Below, piece after piece: positions 842 through 29,435 of a DNA stretch of 32,000 nt; positions within the stretch are counted from its first letter, which is position 1, and each line of letters starts with the position of its first letter. A program made the position numbers and the translations under genes. Under the pieces are notes generated by a model. The model was not told the origin of the DNA. It saw nothing but the letters and a program-made list of their open reading frames with translations, and ran no database searches. Source of the DNA: Candidatus Saccharimonadota bacterium (GTDB lineage Bacteria; Patescibacteriota; Gracilibacteria; BD1-5; UBA6164); assembly GCA_965229705.1 (NCBI GenBank), contig OZ245922.1:270001-302000 (forward strand), in the 5' to 3' direction.

Positions 842-868
842 GGAAGTATCTTCCTGTATATGGGCTTT

Positions 869-973
869 TTAGGAAGCTCTGAAAAACAAAAAAATTCTAA
901 TCCTCTCTGACTCTATCGAGCCATCTCTCCTTTGAAAAAGGAGAGAAAAAGGTGTTTCTCAGAGCTTCCTTAA
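869..973. repeat. MITE-like palindromic repeat, type I
   Basis: Terminal inverted repeats TTAGGAAGCTCTGAAAAAC ... GTTTCTCAGAGCTTCCTTAA. Internal hairpin CTCTCCTTTGAAAAAGGAGAG. Near-identical core at 7998-8105 and inverted at 20281-20421. Confidence 0.75.
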
Positions 974-4050: not shown

Positions 4051-4088
4051 AAGTTTTCTCAGAAAAATAAGCTTTCTTGAGAGAACTT
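4051..4088. repeat. imperfect hairpin built from repeat-family TIR-like arms
   Basis: AAGTTTTCTCAGAAA-AATAAGC-TTTCTTGAGAGAACTT in the divergent mraY/mtnN spacer. The arms resemble the TTTCTCAGAG terminal motif of the MITE-like family. Confidence 0.35.
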
Positions 4089-4109: not shown

Positions 4110-4799
4110 ATGCAGATAAATAAGGCAATTATTACTGCCCTTCAGGCAGAAGCAGACCGAGTTATAGAGAAATACTCTCTTTGAGAAACAAAGCAAGTCG
4201 GGAGCTTGAAGATATTTTCATGAACTAGAAAAAATACAGAAGATGAAGAAGAAAACATTATCCTCTGCGTCTGCTCAGAAGGCAAAATACAATCAGCATT
4301 TGCGACAACGTATCTGCTAGAAAACTACGAAGTAGAAAAAATAATAAACATAGGAATAGTTGGAAATCTCAATTCAGAACTCCTCAAGGTAGGAGATGTG
4401 ATCATGCCAAATACTTTTGTGCAACATGATTTTTATATGCCTGAAGATATAGATTTTCAGCAAGAGAGTCGAGCTCCGATATTTTTAGAGTATGCGATTG
4501 GAGAGGAGTATGATCTTGAGAAATTTTCTCTTCACCTGAGTGGTATATGCGCGACAGGAGATCAGTTTATAGATAAGATGGAACTCATGGAAGACATCAG
4601 AACAACTTTTGAGGCTGATATTGTTGATATGGAGGCATATAGCATTCTTTCTGTAGTGAGAAACTATAATATGCTCGATAAGTGCGTGGTGATAAAGTCT
4701 GTGAGCGATGGAGCAGATAGTGACGCGCAAAATGATGTGATGAATAATCTCGAGCTTGCTATGCAGAATGCTATTATTATTTTGGATTTTGTTCTTTAG
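4110..4799 (+). CDS. mtnN: 5'-methylthioadenosine/S-adenosylhomocysteine nucleosidase
   Basis: 229 aa. Contains NIGIVGNL..KVGDVIMP....HD, CATGDQFI, DMEAYSI and KSVSDGAD, the Pfs/MtnN motif series. Confidence 0.85.
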
Positions 4800-4829
4800 A
4801 GAAATGCGAAAAAACTTTGTATTTCATGG

Positions 4830-4914
4830 TTAAGGAGGATCTGAGAAAGGTATTTTTGTTTTCTCGAGACCGGTCTCTTACACAAGATTTTTCTATTTTT
4901 CAGAGCTTCCTTAA
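4830..4914. repeat. MITE-like palindromic repeat, type II
   Basis: TTAAGGAGGATCTGAGAAAGG...CTCGAGACCGGTCTCTTACACAAGATTTTTCTATTTTTCAGAGCTTCCTTAA, near-identical to 2606-2694. Confidence 0.75.
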
Positions 4915-5603
4915 CTATATTTCTCAAAAAAGATATTTTCCTCATCTACTCATAAAGTCTTGAGTCTTTCTTGACATGACTCTATCATTTCAGGTGCTCC
5001 ACAAAGATAATATTCCGAGTAATCACTGACAACTTTCTGAGAAAGAAAGTCGCTAACATATCATTTTTTGATAATTCACTCTCACTCATCTCGACTTACA
5101 ACAAGATGATAGTAAAAGGTTTGTGGGTAGAGAGATTTGAGTTTTTCAAATTTTTCGAGATACAACATATCTGTGAGATATCGTACTCAAAAAACGAGCT
5201 GATATTTCTCGCCCGTTCACTTCTGGAGTCATATAAGTATTTGATTATACAGTGGTACCAGACCTGTTCAGGTTCACAAAAAGAGTTTATTATTTGAGGT
5301 TTCTTGCAAGAGAAAATGCCCTGCTGGTCCTACAACTTGAAACGTATCTCAAACTTGCGCGTCACATAGAGCAATACTTCCTCATCTGCCTCCATGATTA
5401 GTTGACCACCTCTTGATAACCAGAACAGCTCTGTCTCAAATAAGCTCTAAGATAGAATACGACCGACCTCATATTCCCGCTAATATAAAGGTAATAAACT
5501 GCCCTGCAAGCATGGTTTTTGTCTCTGGGAGTTTGTAGTGAAGCTCAAAAACATCATGGGTCAAAGAGTGTTTTTCTATGAGTTCAACATTCATCATTCA
5601 CAT
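4911..5603 (-). CDS. FAD/NAD(P)-binding oxidoreductase, ferredoxin-reductase-like
   Basis: Frame scanned triplet by triplet, with no in-frame TAA or TAG. Motifs RSYSI (FAD RxYS), L-G-T-G-TGLVP (NAD(P) GTGxxP) and YLCGAPEM. The stop TAA (4911-4913) is contributed by the repeat end. Confidence 0.75.
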
Positions 5604-7997: not shown

Positions 7998-8105
7998 TTA
8001 AAGGAGGTTCTGAAAAACAAAAAATTTCTCCTCCTCTCTGGCTCTATCGAGCTCTCTCTCCTTTGAAAAAGGAGAGAAAAAAGGAGTTTCTCAGAGCTTC
8101 CTTAA
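7998..8105. repeat. MITE-like repeat, type I
   Basis: Same TIRs and CTCTCCTTTGAAAAAGGAGAG hairpin as 869-973. Abuts a type II copy and shares the TTAA at 8102-8105. Confidence 0.75.
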
Positions 8106-8187
8106 GGAAGCTCTGAGAAACAAAAATTCTCGCGTATAAGAGACCGGTCTCGAAAACGAAGAAGTATATTTCTCAGAGACTCCTTAA
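8102..8187. repeat. MITE-like repeat, type II (short core)
   Basis: TTAAGGAAGCTCTGAGAAAC...GAGACCGGTCTC...TTTCTCAGAGACTCCTTAA. Confidence 0.7.
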
Positions 8188-8209: not shown

Positions 8210-8818
8210 ATGAAACCTTTTATTACCTTTCTTTTCATTACCTGATTTTCGATACAAACTCTCTTTGCCTACACAGAGCAAAACATAGAGTCAGCAAACT
8301 TTTTAGCGCAAAACGGGATTATCAATGACAACTCAGATAATATCCTTGCTTACTGACTTGATAATAATATTACTCGCCGTGAAATGCTCAAAGTCATGAT
8401 GAAGCTCTCATGAAAAGAGGTCACAGAAAGCTGTCAGTGAGATTTTTCTGACCTTTCAGGAACTGACTGGTGATGTAAATATGCAGAAGCGGCTCTCAGA
8501 GAATGATTTATTGCTGCAAATGACAACTTTCGCCCAGGAGACAATGTCACCCAGATAGAGGCACTCAAGATGATTATGCAGGCAAAAAATACGCCTCGTG
8601 ATACCAATACAGATGACTGGAGAGCCGGATATGTCTCAAAAGCCCAAAGAGAAAATTATATCGATGAGGGGTATTTTAACTATGATGAGTTTGCACTGAG
8701 GGGATTTATATTTGACAGTTCAGCCAGAAGCTATGACGAGTTTTTGTATACCCAGTCAGACTGATGAACGATTGCTCCTGAGATAGAAGAACTCTTAGAA
8801 TCTATTTTTGATTTATAA
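8210..8818 (+). CDS. secreted SLH-like (S-layer homology) repeat protein, paralog 1
   Basis: 202 aa with a signal-like N-terminus MKPFITFLFIT-G-FSIQTLFA. SLH-like units: ANFLAQNGII...ITRREMLKVMMKL and DFSDLSGTDW-G-CKYAEAALRE-G-FIAANDNFRPGDNVTQIEALKMI. Confidence 0.7.
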
Positions 8819-8822
8819 AAAG

Positions 8823-9602
8823 ATGAAGCGTGTTTTTTGACTGTTTGTTTTTCTTGCATTTCTGAGCTTTGCAAGCGCCTCAGTAGACGACAACTACATC
8901 GTTGTTCAACAAGAGTCAAAACTCTGTGGAAACTTTATCAAGTGAGATAGCAAAAATCCTAATTGGCTCCAAGAGTGATGGCAAGCTCTGTATCTTGCAG
9001 GTGAGCAATATCCACAATACTCAAAAACTTCTGCATGTATTCAGTGAGATACTTTTTCCTGCTGTAGAGAACTGTGACTTCGCTATGCCGGTGTTCCCAT
9101 AGGGGTATCTTTTGTGAGTTCACACAGATTTTCTGCTGAATTTCTTGCAGGAAAAGGTATCATAACTGCTCGCTATCTCAATCCATCAGAGTATAAACTC
9201 CGACAAAATATTTCTCGAAAAGAGTTTCTCAAGATTATTATGACTACTTCATGAAAAGAAGTCACAGAAAACTGTCAGTGAGATTTCTCTGATCTTTCAC
9301 GAACTGACTGGTGATGTAAATACGCAGAAGCAGCTCTGAGAGAATGATTTATTGCTGAAAATGATACCTTTCGTCCAAACGCTCATATATGATATGCGGA
9401 GTCTCTCAAACTTATTTTTTGATCTCGTGATATTACCCAAACCTACACTGATCTTTCTTGGGAGGAAAACTATATTTTTTCAAGCTATTATAAGGGGTAT
9501 ATTGATACTATTCCTGAGTATTATCAGAGGGCTATGACTCGATGAGAAGTTTTTGAGATACTTGCGAGAACATATCCCGAATTTTCGTATAGAGATTTCT
9601 AA
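8823..9602 (+). CDS. secreted SLH-like repeat protein, paralog 2
   Basis: 259 aa with signal peptide MKRVF-G-LFVFLAFLSFASA and a Cys-rich N-terminal insert. Shares the CQ-G-DFSDLS.TDW-G-CKYAEAALRE-G-FIA block with paralog 1, about 90 percent DNA identity over about 124 nt. Confidence 0.7.
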
Positions 9603-9675
9603 GAGAGGAGATTTTCTTTTTCTTGGTTTTTTATACTATGTTCAAGCACTTTTTTAATTTTTTATATATTTTCCT

Positions 9676-10275
9676 ATGTCTAAAATATTTTCTGGAATAA
9701 GTCTTGTTTTTTTATGTCTTACTGTGAGCGTCACTTGAGTATTTTCGATGTCGTATAATGCATCTCAGATAGATGCAGCAAATTTTCTTGCAGAGAGGTG
9801 AATTATCGTAGATCAAAGTAGTAATCCCTCAGAATATAATCTAGATAGTTTTATAGAGAGAAAAGCAACTATGAAAGTGGTGATGAAGCTTTCGGGTGTA
9901 GATATACCTGATGTGTGTTATTGAGTTTTTTCTGATGTGCAAAGCGGTTGGCACTGCAAGTATATAGAACAAGCTTTAGCGCAGTGATTTATATCTCTCA
10001 ATACAACTTTTCGGCCTGATGATAATATTACAAAAACAGAGGCAATGAAGCTTGTTTTACAAGCAAAGGGAATTGAAAAAATAGCAAATACGGCTATATG
10101 GCAAGAAGATTATATGGAGACAGCGTATCATTATGGTATTATACAAGAAAAATACTATGACTACAATGCTCTTGCCAGTCGTGGTTGGATATTTGAAATA
10201 GCTACGGCAAGTATTAAAAGGCAAGAAGCGCAAGAGAGTATAAAAGAGGAACTGATGAGTGATGAAGCATTGTAA
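9676..10275 (+). CDS. secreted SLH-like repeat protein, paralog 3
   Basis: 199 aa. Signal-like N-terminus, then AANFLAER-G-IIVD...ERKATMKVVMKL and CY-G-VFSDVQSGWHCKYIEQALAQ-G-FIS..FRPDDNITKTEAMKLV. Confidence 0.7.
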
Positions 10276-12791: not shown

Positions 12792-14231
12792 CTAACTCCT
12801 CACAAACCCCCCGTGAAATCCTGCCGTTATCCTTACGGGAAAATACGCTATAAACTCTTCTTTCATAGACTGAGCGTTTAGACCAAGGAGAAAGTTTTTC
12901 TCCTTTTTCTCATCAAAGCCATAACATAATAAAATTCCATCATCTTCACTTTTAGAATTTTTATTTTCTACAAAAACTGGTTCTCCAAAATAACAATGCT
13001 CTTTGGTAAAAATAAGTGATTTTTTATGTTCTAAGACATCAAGCTTTACGATATTTGTAAAAATATTATTTCCTTTCGTGTTCCTATTTAGGTTCCCAAC
13101 TCCATACACAAACCTATGTTTTTTATTGATATATTTTTCATTTATCCTTTGCAGTTCACAAGTATAATCTGCTACTTTCTCTTCCTGAATAGAACCACTT
13201 TTGAGATTCATAGAATATCTCATATATTTTGGAGGATAGATGGAGACTCCTCCTTTTTTTAGGTTTTCTATCATAAAATCTTTGAGTATCTGAGGATTAT
13301 CAAAAACAGGAAGTTCAAGAGTGATAGTATCATTTTCTTCATACGCATTTGTTGTGTGAAAAAAGAAAAAAGGATTTACTTTAAACGATTTAACTTTTTC
13401 TCCATTTGATTTTCTCACAATATGAATTTTTGTTTTCATAAAATTTCCAAACCATTGTATATTTTGAAAAAACGAGAAAGGTAAAAAAACAACTGCTGCT
13501 GGAAATAGTAATTTATAGGGCTGTTCAATTACTACCACATAGTTTTTTGTTTGAGCAAGTGAGTGAAAATAACTCGGACAAAGCCTAAAAAATCGTGTAA
13601 TAACTTCTCTTTTTTCCGTTGTAATATCCTGTCTTATAACTTTATGCTGTGAAATGAGGTTCATCTCAACAATTATGTTATACATATTTTTTCTATCAAT
13701 TTGTGGGTGAGCAGTGGTTATTTGCCCAAAAATGTTATTAAACTTATAATTTTGAAGTGTGTTTAAACATGTATCAAACTCCACATATTGAGTAGTTTCA
13801 GTTAGAGCCAAAAAGTTTTTATTTTTATTTTGAACAATATTCACATTACAATTATCCATATCTTTTTGAGAACTTTGAGGAATTTGTGGAAGCACACATT
13901 TTAATAATCTCAATAAATTAAATTTAGAAAATTTCTTTGGTCTTGTAGCAAACATAAAACCTTTATTTTTATTCTCTTCAATTGATTTTTTATAAGAATG
14001 GGATTGTAAAAATTTATTTTTAAAATAAATATTATCATTATCAAACTTTATAGAAAACAAATGTGAAAAACCATCAAACCAATGATTCAAATAGTCTTCT
14101 CCTGAATGAAATTTTCCAGGACCAATTCTCAGGAGTTGTCCGGTAATATCTTTTGGAATTTTCCCAGAAACTTTGAGCTCGGTCCAATCAGTCTCGGCTG
14201 ATACTTCATCAAAAAAGTTTTTGAATGCCAT
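12792..14231 (-). CDS. carotenoid cleavage oxygenase family protein (RPE65/CCD/lignostilbene dioxygenase superfamily)
   Basis: The only long standard-code ORF in the window (479 aa), ATG at 14231 to TAG at 12792-12794. The four iron-ligand His contexts are present: TTAHPQID, SYFHSLAQTKNYVVV, FFFFHTTNAYEE and AGFHGGF at the C-terminus. Zero TGA codons. Confidence 0.85.
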   Translation of the reverse strand: MAFKNFFDEVSAETDWTELKVSGKIPKDITGQLLRIGPGKFHSGEDYLNHWFDGFSHLFSIKFDNDNIYFKNKFLQSHSYKKSIEENKNKGFMFATRPKKFSKFNLLRLLKCVLPQIPQSSQKDMDNCNVNIVQNKNKNFLALTETTQYVEFDTCLNTLQNYKFNNIFGQITTAHPQIDRKNMYNIIVEMNLISQHKVIRQDITTEKREVITRFFRLCPSYFHSLAQTKNYVVVIEQPYKLLFPAAVVFLPFSFFQNIQWFGNFMKTKIHIVRKSNGEKVKSFKVNPFFFFHTTNAYEENDTITLELPVFDNPQILKDFMIENLKKGGVSIYPPKYMRYSMNLKSGSIQEEKVADYTCELQRINEKYINKKHRFVYGVGNLNRNTKGNNIFTNIVKLDVLEHKKSLIFTKEHCYFGEPVFVENKNSKSEDDGILLCYGFDEKKEKNFLLGLNAQSMKEEFIAYFPVRITAGFHGGFVRS

Positions 14232-14249: not shown

Positions 14250-14363
14250 TTAAGAAAACTCTGAGAAAGTTCTTTTTATTTTCTCGAGACTGGTCTCAAG
14301 TTACTTATTTCAAGGAATTGAGACCGGTCTCTTACACAAGATTTTTCTATTTTTCAGAGCTTG
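14250..14363. repeat. MITE-like repeat, type II long variant
   Basis: TTAAGAAAACTCTGAGAAAG...CTCGAGACTGGTCTC-AAGTTACTTATTTCAAGGAATT-GAGACCGGTCTCTTACACAAGATTTTTCTATTTTTCAGAGC. Its reverse complement matches 29271-29386. Starts 18 nt upstream of the oxygenase start codon. Confidence 0.7.
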
Positions 14364-14629
14364 TTTATAGAGTAAGAAAAAAGGGAAGAAATAAAATTTT
14401 TTCTGATTCTCCTAGGGAAATGCGGAAAAACTTCGTATTTCATCGTCAAAGTGCAACATTGTCTTCAAACTCGTACAATGAGTACGCTTATTTCAGCCAA
14501 GTTGCATTTTCCTTGAACTACTTGTTTTTACACATTTCCTATTTTTCCGTGTTTCTCTATGGATAAATATTTTAATATCAGTATATTAGCGAGCAGAGAA
14601 TATATTCTTATTTTTATAATGTTTTTTGT

Positions 14630-15659: not shown

Positions 15660-16457
15660 TTACTTTTTTCTCAAAAAACTACTGATAAGAAACACTCCTC
15701 ATAGTATCAAAACAATTGTTGCTCCAGCAGAAGTATCGAGATAATACGATGCAAAGAGTCATACGCTCACGGCAAATACTGACAGGATAGTAGCAATGAC
15801 AAATACTCCAAAAAGACTTCCAGAGAGAAGTTTTGCGGTGTTTCCAGGAAGAACAAGAAAAGCTCAGAGAAGCAGTACTCCAAATATCTTGAGGCAAACA
15901 GCAATAAAAACGGTCAGATAGAGAAGGTATCCAAACTCTATTTTTCCAGTATGAACTCCCTGACTTTTGGCAATTTCTTCTGAGAGAGCAATCTGAATCA
16001 GTTTTTTTCCAAAAAAGAAATATAAAATAGCTCCTAGTACGAGCATGACAGCTAGAAGATATATATCAAGTTTTTCGACAAAAAGGATATTTCCAAAGAG
16101 AAAGTTAAAAATATCTATTTGCATATTTCATAAAAACCCGACTCAAAAAACTCCTCCAGCAAGACCAATTTGTGAAAGTATTTCTTTGCTTGATTCACGA
16201 GAAGTATAAGTGTATTTTTCAATACAAGAGAGCAAAAAGACTCATATAATCGCTGCAATGATTCCAAAAAGGTAGTAGTTTCCCTGAAAGAAAAATGATA
16301 TCACGATTCCTACAAAAAATACATTTGCAATAGAGTGCGTAATGTTTGGTTCACGGCGGAGGACAACGAGGCTTCCTAGAGTTCCAGATATGAGGCATAC
16401 AAGTACTCAGGCGATGAGTGCTTCTCGAAAGAAAGAGTAGGAGAGTATTTCAAGCAT
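15660..16457 (-). CDS. znuB: metal ABC transporter permease (ABC-3 family)
   Basis: 265 aa. MLEILSYSFFREALIA-G-VLVCLISGTLGSLVVLRR..., FNFLFGNILFV and SEEIAKSQGV are the ZnuB/MntB pattern. Last gene of the zur operon. Confidence 0.8.
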
Positions 16458-16468
16458 AGTTTAGGAGT

Positions 16469-17197
16469 TTAGTGAGAAGGGTGATCATGTTTCTTGTGCG
16501 CGGTATGTTCATAGGGTCGTAAGTACTTTCAAAAAAGATGTTTCACATCTTCGTTTTCTAAAACTTCACTGGGTGTTCCATGACAGCAGAGATTATTTTC
16601 ATGCAGACATATGACTCTGGTCGAGTTCTTGTAAACCAGGTGCAGGTTATGTGACACAAGGATAATGGCCATTTGAGGATAGTTTTTTCTGATCTCAGAG
16701 ATATTTTTATAAAAAGCTTCCTCTCATATACGATCTATTCAACTAGTCGGTTCATCGAGTAAGATGATTTCAGGGTCTGATACAAGAGCTGAGACAATCA
16801 GTATTTTTTGAAACTCTCCTCCAGAGAGTGTATGTATATTGTTTTCCAGAAGATGATTTACAGAAAAGAGTTTTGCAAGAGACTCTATTTTTTGTATTTT
16901 GAGGTTTTGATGAAACATTGCAAAAAACTCTTTGACTTTTACGGGGAAGTTTTTTTCGAGTTGTATTTTCTGGGGAACATATGCTATTTTTTGAGTCTGA
17001 AGAGATATATTTCAGCAAAAGGGTTTTTGTATTCATGCAATAGTCTTGAGGAGGCTTGATTTTCAAGTTCCATTTTTTCAAATAATAGAAAGTATTTCTC
17101 ATGAATGCAAAGAAAAGCTTATATCCCGAAGGATAAAGCTTTTTCCTGAATCATACGAAATATCGATATGTGAGAGTTCGAGAAGTTTTTTACTCAT
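16469..17197 (-). CDS. znuC: metal ABC transporter ATPase
   Basis: 242 aa. Walker A G-KNGT-G-KSS with both Gly as TGA (17063-17080), signature LSGGEFQK, Walker B ILLDEPTS-G-ID. The start ATG (17195-17197) overlaps the znuA stop by 8 nt. Confidence 0.88.
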
Positions 17198-18317
17198 AGA
17201 CTTTTGCGAGATTCTCCAAATTACTTTTGAGGTTTTCTATATATCCTCCAGCGCTTGGGTTTGCTCAGAGAGGATCAAGTGTTCCGAGTTTGAGGCCGTA
17301 CTCATTTGCAAATCTTTTAATATTTCCTGTTGAAAACTGTGGTTCAGTAAAGCCATGAGAGATATTATGCTCTTGTACTTGTTCGACGAGCTCTGCAAGA
17401 TAGGCAGTTCCTGTATCATGCAATACATTTTCAGAGAAAGGGACTTTGAGATGCATATCCATTCATACTGACTGCATGAGGTAGTTGTATGCGTCATGAA
17501 ATACTATAAACTTTTTTGGAGATTTCCCAGCGGTAGTTTCAGCGAAGTTTTTGTAGGCAGATCGTACTTCGTTTTTAAAGTTTTCTGCGTTTTGGCTAAA
17601 GTATTCTGATTGTTCTGGGATTTCTTTTGAAAACTCGTCTCGAATAGTGTCAGCTATTTGAAAAATATTATCTTTTCCAAGCCATACATGAGGATCACTG
17701 CTATGATCATGTTCATCGCGATGTTCTCACTTATCGTGTTCATCATCATGGTACTCATCTGTATGAGTTTCTTCATCATGATGTTCATCAGAATGACCGT
17801 GATTATCGTGATGTTCATCTTCATGCTCATCTTCATGATGTTCCTCTTCTTCGTGGTGCTCATCATCACTATGACCATCGTGGTGATCATGTCACTCAAC
17901 TTCAATAAGTTTCATGCCATCGGCGAGATGTATTTGTTTACTTGTATCTACAGCTTTCTCAAGAAATCCATCTATATGTTCGAGACCAATCATGAATACT
18001 TTCTCACTTTTTGATATATCAGCCATCATTTTTGCTGAGAGATCAAAACCATGAGGAGAAACTCCTGCGGGAACAATATTTGTTACTACAGCGTAGTCTC
18101 CACCAATAGTCTTCACGAGTGATGATAAAGGAACAATAGAGCTACTCACATATATTCTATTTTCTAATATATCTTTTGGCATATAGTCAGTTGAATACTC
18201 CGGCTTGTTATCTAGGTTACGCTCTGAGAGAGGTATATACTCTTGCGTATCTGTTACTGCGCTTCCACATGATACAACAAGAAAACTCATCAGGATGAGA
18301 GTTATAACTTTTTTCAT
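17190..18317 (-). CDS. znuA: zinc ABC transporter substrate-binding lipoprotein with long His/Asp/Glu-rich loop
   Basis: MKKVITLILMSFLVVSC lipobox, then a cluster A-I SBP fold (VSPHGFD, DPHVWL, FHDAYNYL, FTEPQFS). A 69-aa His-rich insert maps to 17688-17894. The alternative upstream start at 18356 would overlap zur. Confidence 0.8.
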
Positions 18318-18343
18318 AATATTATGATTATAGAAATATGATT

Positions 18344-18745
18344 TTATCACTGGCATCTTTTACATACCCCAAAAATATTGATACAGTGCTCATGGATATG
18401 AAAACCAATTTTTTCTGCTTCTGCAAAAATTTTTGAACATACATCATGAGAGTCAAAACTGAGTATTTCTCAGCAAGAGTGGCACTTCATATGTTCATGG
18501 TGGCATTTTTTACAGCACTCAATTTCATAGCTTTCTCCATATGCTCAGAGGTGAACACGCCGAAGAACTCATATTTCTCAAAAGAGTTTGAGTGTTCGAA
18601 ATATACTTGCGCGACCAATATCAGGAAATGCCTCAATAATATCCTTACTTTGAAAAATGTGGAGACTCTGCATTTTTTCAAAAAGTTTCACTCTTTCGGG
18701 AGTGACTTTTTTGTTGTGGGATATGAGCTGTTTCTTGATTTCCAT
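18344..18745 (-). CDS. zur: Fur-family metalloregulator, Zur-like
   Basis: 133 aa. GRASIFRTLKLF-G-EI-G-VL winged helix, CCKKCHHEHMKCHSC-G and GVCKRCQ-G CxxC pairs. First gene of the operon with znuACB. Confidence 0.8.
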
Positions 18746-18900: not shown

Positions 18901-18926
18901 ATCAGAGAGGATTAGAAAATATTTTT
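18901..18926. repeat. fragment of type I MITE-like repeat
   Basis: ATCAGAGAGGATTAGAAAAT matches the GTCAGAGAGGATTAGAAT end of inverted type I copies. The sigma-factor stop codon (18912-18914) lies inside it. Confidence 0.5.
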
Positions 18927-20165
18927 CCTAACTAAAGGTTGCATTTTATTTCTGAGCTTCTCTTTGACTCGTTCTATTATCTGCCGTATTCTTTCACGAC
19001 TTACTCACATATCGTCCCCAATTTTTTGCAGGGTATGTTCCTCTATGTTCCCAATACCATAGTATAAGCGTATTATTCGTTCTTCATGAGGATTAAGTTT
19101 TCTTAGTGCTTGGAGAATTATCTGCCGTTGTTCTTCAGATATCATAGCGATATCAAAACTTTCAATCTTTTGATCAGGGATAATATTTCTATACTGAACC
19201 CCATCAGGTATATCATCTCTCACAGGACCATCTATATTTACTCATTGAAATGTCTCTATTTCAAGAGCTATTTGTATCTTTTCTATTGATACCCCAGTTT
19301 CCTCTTTAATTTCACTGAGAGAGGGGAACCTGTTATAAAGAGTTTTATATTTCCTTTGTACTTGTTTTATTCTTTGCAGGTTCCGATATGCTTGTGGAGA
19401 AACTTTTATCATACTTTCTCTTCATCTGAATAATTGTAGTATGTATACCTTTATCCACCATCGAGTATAGGTACTCAGTAGATTTCCTGTTCTGTAGTCA
19501 TATGTTTCTAGAGCTCTCATAAGTCAGAGAGCTCCTTCTTGTATAAGTTCTTCTTTTTCTATATTTTCGCTCTTATACTTGCTTGCTATTTTTGCAACAA
19601 GACGGAGATGACTCCTTACCATAGGCTCTTTCTTCTGTCGTATTTCGCTCTCTTTTTTCAATATCTTTTTGAGAAATCATATAGTTTCGTCATAAGTTCC
19701 AGTAAATATTTCAGAAGTTTTTTCTGATGAATCACTCAGAAGGTTTTGGAGTGCTGTTTCGTAATGAGAAAAACATTTTTGGAGAAAATCTGTATGAAAT
19801 ATTACTTGCATACATATTGCTTGAAAATTGTTTATATTTTCTTGATTTGGAGAGTTTTGAGATATATGAACCGTGATATCTTTCAATTTTTTGAGAACTC
19901 ATAACTTTTCTTGTATATCTTGAGATACTTCTCCATTTTCACTATATATTTGAAAGAAGTAATTTTTGTAGCTCGGAGGATTATTTATAACGATATTACA
20001 CATTTTTATGACTGCTGAGAGAAACAAGGGGCTCTGAGCAAGTAGCTCAAATAGTTCATACTTGAGATTTTCTATTTGCATAAATGCTTCCCTTACTTTT
20101 TCATGAGGCATCTCTTTCATCTGGAATATTTTTGTAATATAATCGTGTGAGAGGGTGTTGTTCAT
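18912..20165 (-). CDS. rpoD: sigma-70 family RNA polymerase sigma factor (probably primary)
   Basis: 417 aa, frame verified across all pieces. Region 2: HLRLVAKIASKY...[33 protein letters not shown]. Region 4: EERIIRLYYGIGN..HTLQKIGDDM-G-VSRERIRQIIERV. The N-terminus is divergent. Confidence 0.85.
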
Positions 20166-20280: not shown

Positions 20281-20421
20281 TTAAGAAAGCTCTGAGGAAC
20301 TCCTTTTTTCTCTCTTTTCAAAAAAAGAGAAGAATCTATTTTCCCCTCCCTTATCAAGGGAAGGGTTATATATTCTAGAGATGGCTCGATAGAGCTAGAG
20401 AGGATTAGAGAAATCGCTTAA
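20281..20421. repeat. MITE-like repeat, type I, inverted orientation with about 45-bp internal insertion
   Basis: TTAAGAAAGCTCTGAGGAAC...hairpin...GATGGCTCGATAGAGCTAGAGAGGATTAGAG is the reverse complement of the 869-973 core. An extra hairpin CCCCTCCCTTATCAAGGGAAGGG is inserted. Confidence 0.65.
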
Positions 20422-25266: not shown

Positions 25267-25342
25267 AGTATAAATAAGCAATATAAAAAAATACGATTGT
25301 ATTTTCTGCAGAGGAATAAAAAAATCAAGCAGGATTTTTTTT

Positions 25343-25374
25343 TGCTGTTAAAAAGTTGTGCAGGAAGATAAAAA
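25343..25374. repeat. 32-nt perfect direct repeat, copy 1
   Basis: TGCTGTTAAAAAGTTGTGCAGGAAGATAAAAA, identical to 26580-26611. Lies about 78 nt upstream of dnaN on the minus strand. Confidence 0.9.
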
Positions 25375-25445
25375 ATTGCATTTTTTTGAGAAAATAGTAT
25401 GCTTGTGGTTACGAAAACCAAAACTCAATGGTAAAGGAGTGAGTC

Positions 25446-25802: not shown

Positions 25803-26483
25803 TTAGTGTTTTCTCCATTTAGATATTTGAGGTTTAACTTCCATATCTCGCACTATTTCAACTAATTTTTGAGGATTTACTTCAACATCTCTTGCCAGTG
25901 TATCTTTATTTTTTGAAAAGTGAGGATATGCAACTCTTGCTTCATCTGTAAGGAATGGTGTTTCTTCTTTTCCACTTATATCAGTGAGATATTTAAAGAA
26001 GGCTGGTTGGGTATTTCTGAAAAAATCTTCAATCTCTGCATCTGTTATATCTCATTTCTCTTTTATTTCCAAGAAGAGTCTTACTGCACTTTTTACAAAT
26101 CAAGGATAATCTCATCATAGCTTTGATAAATCTGCATCTGCTATCAATTTTTGTTCTGGAATTACTAAATTTCACCTCTCTGTAAAAATGGTTCACATTA
26201 TCAATTCTTGAACTTTTGATATATAAGACTCATCAAATCATTTTTGAGAAAGATAATCTTGTGCTATTTTTGCTGCTCTCTCCTCATCATCTTCTTGTAA
26301 GTATCATTGATGATCTGCATCGTGAAAATATCAAGCTATTCTTCAAGGAGAGACAACATGTCTACTTCCTTCAAGTTTCATCATTGCATTTCAAACATGT
26401 TTTCAATGCACCCAATTATGGTATGGGATTTCTTGATAAGTTTTAGCTATATCTCTACGAAACATTTCGATTTGACTTGGCAT
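25803..26483 (-). CDS. HD-superfamily metal-dependent phosphohydrolase
   Basis: 226 aa. YHNWVH-G-KHV and IA-G-YFHDADH form the H...HD signature, with about 12 TGA-Gly codons. Both ends checked by coordinates. Confidence 0.7.
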
Positions 26484-26543: not shown

Positions 26544-26579
26544 TATTTTCTTAAGTTTTCTACTTTTTCTCGTTTCTCC

Positions 26580-26611
26580 TGCTGTTAAAAAGTTGTGCAG
26601 GAAGATAAAAA
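26580..26611. repeat. 32-nt perfect direct repeat, copy 2
   Basis: Identical to 25343-25374. Lies about 98 nt upstream of the HD gene on the minus strand and just downstream of the priA fragment. Confidence 0.9.
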
Positions 26612-26642
26612 TTTGTGTTTGCTCTCTTTTGTCTTGTATATT

Positions 26643-29270: not shown

Positions 29271-29386
29271 CTAAGGAGACGCTGAAAAATAGAAAAATCT
29301 TATGTAAGAGACCGGTTTCAAGCTCTTGAAATAAGTAACTCGAGACCGGTCTCGAGAAAATAAAAATGACTTTCTCAGAACTTCTC
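29271..29386. repeat. MITE-like repeat, type II long variant, inverted relative to 14250-14363
   Basis: CTGAAAAATAGAAAAATCTTATGTAAGAGACCGGTTTCAAGCTCTTGAAATAAGTAACTCGAGACCGGTCTCGAGAAAATAAAAATGACTTTCTCAGAAC closely matches the reverse complement of 14250-14363. Confidence 0.7.
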
Positions 29387-29435
29387 TCACTCAAAATTTT
29401 TGGCAAAATATCATAAGGTTTTTTGACATAGCTAC

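Follow-up and report, generated by a model that had tools for sequence, protein, structure and literature searches.

The insertion sequences of the IS5 group are autonomous elements of ~1.2 kb that encode a DDE transposase, and the target duplication of IS5 is a conserved YTAR tetranucleotide (PMC10359306). MITEPsy1 of P. syringae pv. phaseolicola is 100 nt long, has no ORF and carries an 18-nt end (GGAAGGTCTGAAAAAGCC); it duplicates 4 nt (CTAG or YTAA), was trapped while transposing and was attributed by its authors to the transposase of an IS5-type parent, ISPsy2 (Bardaji et al. 2011, PMC3189936). BrickBuilt, MITE293 and MITE700 of Porphyromonas gingivalis and ATR of Neisseria are also IS5-family MITEs; they have only their terminal repeats in common with their IS5-family parents, contain modular interiors and are mostly intergenic (PMC4596501).

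Here we analyse a 32-kb stretch of DNA (hereafter the window) from a Gracilibacteria genome in which TGA is recoded. Our results indicate that the short palindromic repeats of the window are, with high probability, IS5-group-derived MITEs that have multiplied in the spacers of this genome. They appear to be a known kind of element, of which the interiors and the occurrence in Gracilibacteria appear undescribed. Searches of the Patescibacteria literature on MITEs and insertion sequences, and of the Gracilibacteria literature on repeats and transposases, returned no description of such elements; the words Patescibacteria and 'candidate phyla' were absent from both prokaryotic MITE papers searched by text, and the end sequence itself occurred in the literature only in mammalian PCR primers.

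Several other repeat families are comparable in size and folding. Correia/NEMIS, RUP, ERIC and Rickettsia RPE are hairpin-forming repeats of 100-150 bp that make up a few percent of small genomes, and some of them influence transcript stability or processing. Correia and RUP elements duplicate TA, RPEs insert in frame within genes, and the ends of these families differ from those in the window; we know of no Correia/NEMIS, RUP, ERIC or RPE element with GGAAG…CTGA.AAA ends. TTAA is the target duplication of piggyBac, and elements of the IS1380 family make duplications of 4-5 bp, but the ends of both begin with CC…, compared to GGAAG… in the window. A link to either is unnecessary because the window ends match IS5-group elements.

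Host, genetic code and gene context

Under the standard bacterial code the window contains almost no long ORFs, because TGA is a sense codon here. Stop-to-stop frames of at least 150 aa amount to 41.8 kb when TGA is read as sense, compared to 4.5 kb under the standard code (six frames, overlaps included). TGA occupies required glycine positions in DnaJ (i.e. the Gly/Phe linker and the CxxCxGxG motifs) and in the DGLDGLAGG motif of MraY, which indicates code 25 (TGA = Gly). Homologues of DnaN and MraY carry the annotation Candidatus Gracilibacteria, which places the host in this group; the closest DnaN relative has 84% identity. The proteins of the window are on record for a contig of 1,006,762 bp, of which the 32 kb analysed here are a part. 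The remaining ORFs of the window read as housekeeping genes (e.g. DnaJ, DnaN, MraY, sigma-70 and PriA). None of the 20 window proteins scanned with Pfam contains a transposase domain, in agreement with the sequence-only reading that preceded this analysis.

Content and organization of the repeat family

That reading had proposed a dense family of modular, MITE-like palindromic repeats of two types in the long spacers. Profile searches (nhmmer) recover eight full copies and two fragments in the 32-kb window: three full copies belong to type I and five to type II, and the latter include two long copies and one divergent copy. Together with the 19-mer and palindrome searches, the profiles place the copies within a few bases of the coordinates first given for them. 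The listed copies are all recovered except for a mini-hairpin at 4051-4088, which had been included as a weaker member and is doubtful. The features are as follows.

868-973, plus strand: type I copy, 106 bp including its flanks (TTTA/TTAA); nhmmer E = 3.5e-34; arms 90% complementary; RNA fold of -38 to -51 kcal/mol, z -5.6 and -7.3; located between a membrane-protein gene (371-841, plus) and a 390-aa gene (1055-2227, plus)
2578-2609, no strand: solo end TTTCTCAGATTTTTCTTAA, the remnant of a truncated element; abuts the 2606-2694 copy on a common TTAA
2606-2694, plus strand: type II copy, flanks TTAA/TTAA; nhmmer E = 8.7e-25; its right TTAA is the source of the TAA stop of a pterin-4a dehydratase gene (2691-2936, minus), an 81-aa ORF assigned by Pfam PF01329
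4051-4088, no strand: mini-hairpin with TTCTCAGA and TCTTGAGAGAA motifs; marginal profile matches (E ~9-10); possibly a decayed end-to-end junction, of doubtful family membership
4800-4829, plus strand: 30-nt block (27-nt core GAAATGCGAAAAAACTTTGTATTTCAT), bounded by TTAG and TTAA
4830-4914, plus strand: type II copy, flanks TTAA/TTAA; nhmmer E = 1.1e-23; located at the meeting point of the convergent PNP (4110-4799, plus) and FNR (4911-5603, minus) genes
7998-8105, plus strand: type I copy; nhmmer E = 7.4e-34; 91% identical to the 868-973 copy; in tandem with the following copy within the HtpX-SLH spacer
8102-8187, plus strand: type II variant, flanks TTAA/TTAA; fold z -5.6 and -5.8; type II ends and 12-bp palindrome kept, rest of the interior different
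14250-14367, plus strand: long type II copy, flanks TTAA/TTTA; nhmmer E = 8e-22; fold z -4.9; two copies of the 12-bp palindrome with a 22-nt segment between them; start of an RPE65-family gene 18 bp away
14417-14446, plus strand: second copy of the 30-nt block, bounded by CTAG and TCAA
18897-18925, minus strand: internal type I fragment; nhmmer model positions 20-48, E = 0.097
20281-20421, minus strand: inverted type I copy, flanks TTAA/TTAA; nhmmer E = 6.1e-21, and alignment; internal hairpin-forming insert of ~50 nt; one end truncated
29271-29389, minus strand: inverted long type II copy; nhmmer E = 4.4e-24; 85% identical to the 14250 copy; left flank CTAA (still YTAR), right end decayed

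Each element consists of two inverted ends of ~15-19 nt, GGAAGCTCTGA(G/A)AAA, around a short non-coding interior, and the shared ends, together with the TTAA flanks, read TTAA-GGAAGCTCTGAGAAA…TTTCTCAGAGCTTCC-TTAA. The terminal 19-mer TTTCTCAGAGCTTCCTTAA has 12 matches in the window at up to three mismatches (0.05 expected), and the 12-bp palindrome GAGACCGGTCTC has seven (0.01 expected). There are at least two unrelated interiors (i.e. type I and type II), plus variants due to internal insertion or deletion. The hairpin core of type I is found at 925-945 and 8056-8076. The long type II copies (stretches 14286-14331 and 29308-29353) correspond to the short form plus 34 nt, namely the 22-nt segment and a second GAGACCGGTCTC, and a deletion between the two GAGACCGGTCTC copies would turn the long form into the short one. 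With a length of 85-141 bp, and overlapped by spurious short frames only, the elements have no coding capacity for a transposase. The description of the repeats as non-autonomous, MITE-like elements with terminal inverted repeats is borne out.

We then compared the positions of the copies with a gene map based on code 25. Intergenic DNA accounts for 13.8% of the window, and all eight full copies are located there, in seven spacers. Element sequence, fragments included, amounts to 913 bp; this is 2.9% of the 32 kb and 21% of the intergenic part. The copies occur in both orientations, and in co-directional, convergent and divergent spacers. Within a type they share 85-95% identity, their flanks are unique to each copy and several ends are decayed. 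Given this divergence and the unique flanks, the copies are neither assembly duplicates nor the products of a very recent burst.

The internal type I fragment overlaps the sigma-70 gene (18912-20165, minus) at its last four codons and stop, and the present C-terminus of this protein may be element-derived.

Element ends and target site

We extracted reference ends of the IS5 group from annotated elements in plasmid records. Their ends and target duplications are as follows.

ISPssy: TTAG-GGAAACTCTGAAAAAG…-TTAG
Achromobacter pEST4011 IS (IS5-family): CTAG-GGAAGGTCTGCAAAAC…-CTAG
IS5: CTAA-GGAAGGTGCGAACAAG…-CTAA
ISKpn26: TTAG duplication
ISEc68: CTAA duplication

The window end GGAAGCTCTGAGAAAC agrees with the ISPssy IRL at 13 of 16 positions, with the Achromobacter IS at 13 of 16 and with IS5 at 10 of 16, and has the same GGAA start. 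The likeness to IS5-group insertion sequences thus includes the GGAAG/GGAAA start, the …CTGA.AAA core and the 4-bp YTAR duplication. By contrast, the window elements are 85-141 bp long and non-coding. MITEPsy1 shares their small size (~100 nt) and lack of an ORF, its end is identical to the window variant GGAAGCTCTGAAAAAC at 14 of 16 positions, and its YTAA duplication covers the TTAA of the window, which fits YTAR and YTAA alike. It differs in its unrelated interior, in its host phylum and in its copy number (six per ~6 Mb genome, compared to eight per 32 kb in the window), and the window has several interiors on the same ends. Furthermore, MITEPsy1 was caught moving and co-resides with its putative parent, whereas the window elements are known from sequence alone. 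BrickBuilt, MITE293, MITE700 and ATR are similar in their modular interiors and mostly intergenic location, but they have ends of the GAGACCTTTGCA (ISPg/ISNme1) type, make duplications of variable length and sequence, and belong to another IS5-family subgroup. The sequence-only reading had not recognized the repeats as any described class; by their ends and their 4-bp YTAR duplication they belong with the IS5 group and MITEPsy1, and only the interiors are new.

The flanks of the window copies are strongly restricted. TTAA occupies 11 of the 16 flanking positions and CTAA one, so that 12 of 16 match YTAR, and TTAA occurs at only 76 positions in the 32 kb. The remaining flanks are one base or an indel off, save one decayed flank (CTCA). 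At two junctions, abutting ends have a single TTAA in common: the junction at 8102-8105, where the abutment of a type I and a type II copy had already been read as a sign of TTAA-targeted insertion, is confirmed, and the one at 2606-2609 is new. The common TTAA at 8102-8105 creates a perfect 36-bp palindrome (8086-8121).

An alternative reading is that the repeats are TA-duplicating MITEs of the IS630/Tc1-mariner type (like RUP/Correia-type elements), with a preference for a TTAA context and with true ends AGGAAG…CTTCCT. A TA duplication with A…T ends inside TTAA yields the same strings as a TTAA duplication; the window flanks agree with YTAR, while their strings alone fit both cases equally, and the 4-bp length is taken from the analogy with IS5 and from the CTAA-flanked copy. 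Some copies in other organisms (see below) have GTAA or TCAA on one side, which would suit a TA duplication. We nevertheless regard this alternative as unlikely: 13-14 of 16 end positions agree with inverted repeats of the IS5 group, with the same GGAA start, the matching IS copies have clean 4-bp YTAR duplications, CTAA flanks one of the window copies, and three YTAR 4-mers are present at the filled FNR/PNP site described below. No resemblance to IS630 ends was seen in the comparisons, which covered ends of the IS5 group.

For IS5-group-derived elements, the target also bears on gene ends. Only TAA and TAG are left as stop codons in code 25. Since YTAR consists of a pyrimidine plus one of these two codons, its duplication regenerates the stop. 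Two genes in the window have a T-TAA stop context, and both abut elements. An element flank is the stop of a long ORF at five of 16 independent loci, compared to a rough baseline of 14%, which is a trend only and not significant. The same coincidence of flank and stop codon is found in three independent loci of other organisms.

Empty and filled sites in related genomes

We compared the window with three relatives (L044, L045 and L046) that have 79-83% MraY identity and the same order of genes as positions 1-10 kb of the window; they represent other species, not strains. In both L044 and L046, FNR and PNP are convergent and overlap by exactly four bases, and both stops lie within one YTAR (TTAG at 7158-7161 in L044; CTAG at 1264-1267 in L046). 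This overlap is a compact arrangement that is, coincidentally, an IS5-type target.

In the window, the same junction is filled. In FNR sense it reads …GAGAAATATAG(TTAA)-type II element-(TTAA)-30-nt block-(CTAA)AGAACAAAATC…, and the native C-termini of both proteins are intact, with EKYS and LDFVL directly before the stops. The stop codon of FNR (assigned by Pfam) is the right-hand TTAA of the 4830-4914 copy. Three YTAR 4-mers around two inserts are the expected trace of two successive 4-bp duplications at one ancestral site.

The 27-nt block, previously noticed at 4801 and 14417 near type II copies, occurs exactly twice in the window (none expected), and L044 and L046 lack the 30-nt block that contains it at their orthologous junction with overlapping stops. 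Judged by this comparison of sequences, the block is a separate mini-insertion relative to these relatives. The left end of the block (GGAAATGCG) resembles the IS5 end GGAAGGTGCG.

Other spacers differ in the same way. The spacer between the pterin-4a dehydratase and RNHCP genes measures 3 nt in L045 compared to 118 nt in the window, where it consists almost entirely of the type II element and the solo end. The HtpX-SLH spacer measures 59 nt in L045 compared to 314 nt in the window, where the two-element tandem takes up 190 nt. No copies were found in ~100 kb of DNA from seven relatives (syntenic and DnaN-anchored loci), and the gene tables of this DNA contain no transposase. The absence of copies from the relatives indicates that the expansion of the family is lineage-specific. 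Dispersed copies with unique flanks in the window, and empty orthologous sites in L044, L045 and L046, are what characterizes MITEs. Together with the flank statistics and the shared-TTAA junctions, this comparison upholds the proposal of TTAA-targeted insertion.

The same ends in other organisms

A scan for the single-end 19-mer in 185,579 GTDB species genomes and a metagenome collection returned 29 loci, none of them from the source organism; the GTDB species-genome part contributed 16 loci, none from Gracilibacteria. A scan of viral contigs with the same 19-mer gave no matches, and a BLAST search of plasmids with the junction palindrome gave two marginal matches only. A second, inverted end lies 37-160 bp away in 10 of the 29 loci (chance ~0.005 per locus). 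This second end, which was not selected by the search, has a TTAA flank in seven of the 10 paired loci. The short elements with paired ends come from Gammaproteobacteria, Paraglaciecola, Neisseria, Nitrosomonas-type contigs and one contig of 23% GC.

The interiors of these foreign elements are related neither to one another nor to those of the window, and the GAGACCGGTCTC palindrome was not found in any same-end element of other organisms. A Halomonas copy, found by interior similarity alone, has TTAA on both sides, and a 17-nt stretch at the left end of the L009/L024 element equals the ISPssy IRL exactly. This combination of conserved ends, a conserved 4-bp flank and free interiors is what marks non-autonomous elements served by a single transposase family. 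No autonomous IS was found beside the single-end loci, where the adjacent ORFs look cellular (translations inspected by eye) and include cytochrome c-like, cardiolipin synthase-like and solute-binding proteins.

Two groups of foreign elements deserve separate description. An unannotated family of ~140 bp with the same ends is present in L026 (7041-7188), L014, L005, L009, L024, L033 (3001-3148) and L032 (3001-3111); its hosts are Nitrosomonas and other proteobacterial MAGs, a Halomonas replicon of 1.8 Mb and Pseudomonas plasmids. In P. tremae, the copy has altered ends between CTAG flanks, and an IS5-family element is located ~1.2 kb away. In a second, distant Gracilibacteria lineage (L031, 229-396), a 160-bp element has the same ends and TTAA flanks around an unrelated interior. 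The contig that contains it has 23% GC, shows open ORFs only with TGA as a sense codon, and encodes a MiaA that is 72-77% identical to Gracilibacteria proteins.

These loci also bear on the possibility, already raised with the first description of the repeats, that the copies are an assembly or chimera artefact of a metagenome-assembled contig. None of the public collections searched contains the source genome, which leaves no independent recount of its copies. However, the copies differ by 5-15%, have unique flanks and lie between intact conserved genes; the gene order is the same in three independent relatives; and the element architecture recurs in independent assemblies of other organisms. 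An artefact is therefore extremely unlikely.

Folding and possible function

RNA folds of the elements are stable hairpins, with z-scores between -1.6 and -7.3, and the best terminator-like sites in the window are the two end-to-end junctions only. Together with the intergenic location of all full copies, this would fit palindromes selected by the host (i.e. terminators, RNA-stability hairpins or protein-binding sites, comparable to REP/BIME) and spread by recombination, and a role in termination or mRNA stability had indeed been suggested from the sequence. However, both terminator-like junctions are on the strand opposite to the neighbouring genes, the copies occupy every spacer type in both orientations, conservation across phyla is limited to the ends and the interiors are unrelated, and syntenic relatives function without copies and with far shorter spacers. 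REP signatures (GTAG/CTAC) are absent from the sequence, the window contains no RAYT-like ORF, and the elements, at 85-141 bp with terminal repeats of 15-19 nt that start with GGAAG, are unlike REP/BIME. Rfam 15 yields no window matches at the gathering score, and only a tRNA in seven foreign same-end loci. We thus consider host-selected palindromes a very unlikely explanation. The antisense position of the junctions and the indifference to orientation and spacer type leave no evidence that the elements were selected to terminate transcription or to stabilise RNA, so that the earlier suggestion is unsupported; individual copies could have side effects.

Two specific functions were considered and rejected. 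As intrinsic terminators, the only two qualifying junctions are antisense to the flanking genes. As for a Shine-Dalgarno role, AAGGAGG occurs within some ends but no start codon follows at a suitable distance.

Proposed mechanism and implications

As IS5-group-derived MITEs, the elements would be bound at their ends by an IS5-group DDE transposase encoded elsewhere and mobilised in trans. Because no transposase was found in the window, beside the single-end loci or in the relatives, we infer this enzyme from the ends alone. Insertion would take place at a YTAR tetranucleotide, nearly always TTAA in the window, which would be duplicated on both sides, and selection would spare only insertions in spacers or exactly at stop codons. 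The expansion would have followed the split from relatives with about 76-83% protein identity. Current mobility is doubtful, since the copies are only 85-95% identical and several ends are decayed.

A broader scenario can be put forward only tentatively and is, in our judgement, rather doubtful. One IS5-group lineage might have crossed between standard-code Proteobacteria and TGA-recoded Gracilibacteria and then burst as MITEs, for which YTAR-matching stops, including overlapping convergent ones, would have been safe harbours where insertions pry compact genes apart. Proteobacteria could be hosts or prey of episymbiont Gracilibacteria. Transfer from Proteobacteria to Gracilibacteria is feasible, since a code-25 cell still reads through a transposase gene written in the standard code.

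Patescibacteria (CPR) have very small genomes, which are usually said to contain little mobile DNA. In this Gracilibacteria window, one MITE superfamily makes up ~3% of 32 kb and about one-fifth of the intergenic DNA. The ends tie the window elements to proteobacterial IS5-group transposons and so offer a concrete starting point for work on horizontal transfer into an altered-code lineage, and the FNR/PNP junction is a clean natural example of a 4-bp target duplication at overlapping stop codons. In practice, the repeats and code 25 will confuse gene callers and repeat-sensitive assemblers, and a profile of the family would aid binning and strain typing of the lineage. The general understanding of how MITEs work is unchanged by these elements.

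Other features of the window

An RPE65/carotenoid-oxygenase family gene (12792-14231, minus; Pfam E = 1.9e-94) is located in a region of ~28-32% GC. TGA accounts for none of its 23 Gly codons, compared to 43% elsewhere (P ~2.5e-6), and the gene looks recently acquired from a standard-code organism.

A 48-nt direct repeat (25336-25383 and 26573-26620; 88% identity) is unrelated to the MITEs. Its copies lie 70-140 nt upstream of two minus-strand genes, i.e. dnaN and an unannotated 226-aa gene (25803-26483) with no Pfam match, and may represent a promoter or operator common to both. DnaA boxes are not enriched near dnaN.

Three tandem paralogous genes occupy 8210-10275. The first has a Pfam match to SLH (S-layer homology), and the first two have a stretch of 171 nt in common with 83% identity. 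This gene trio is kept in L044 and L045, where genes 1 and 3 give faint SLH matches. A ZnuABC-type transporter cluster is located at 15660-18359, and its ZnuA homologue (17190-18359, minus) contains a long insert rich in His, Asp and Glu.
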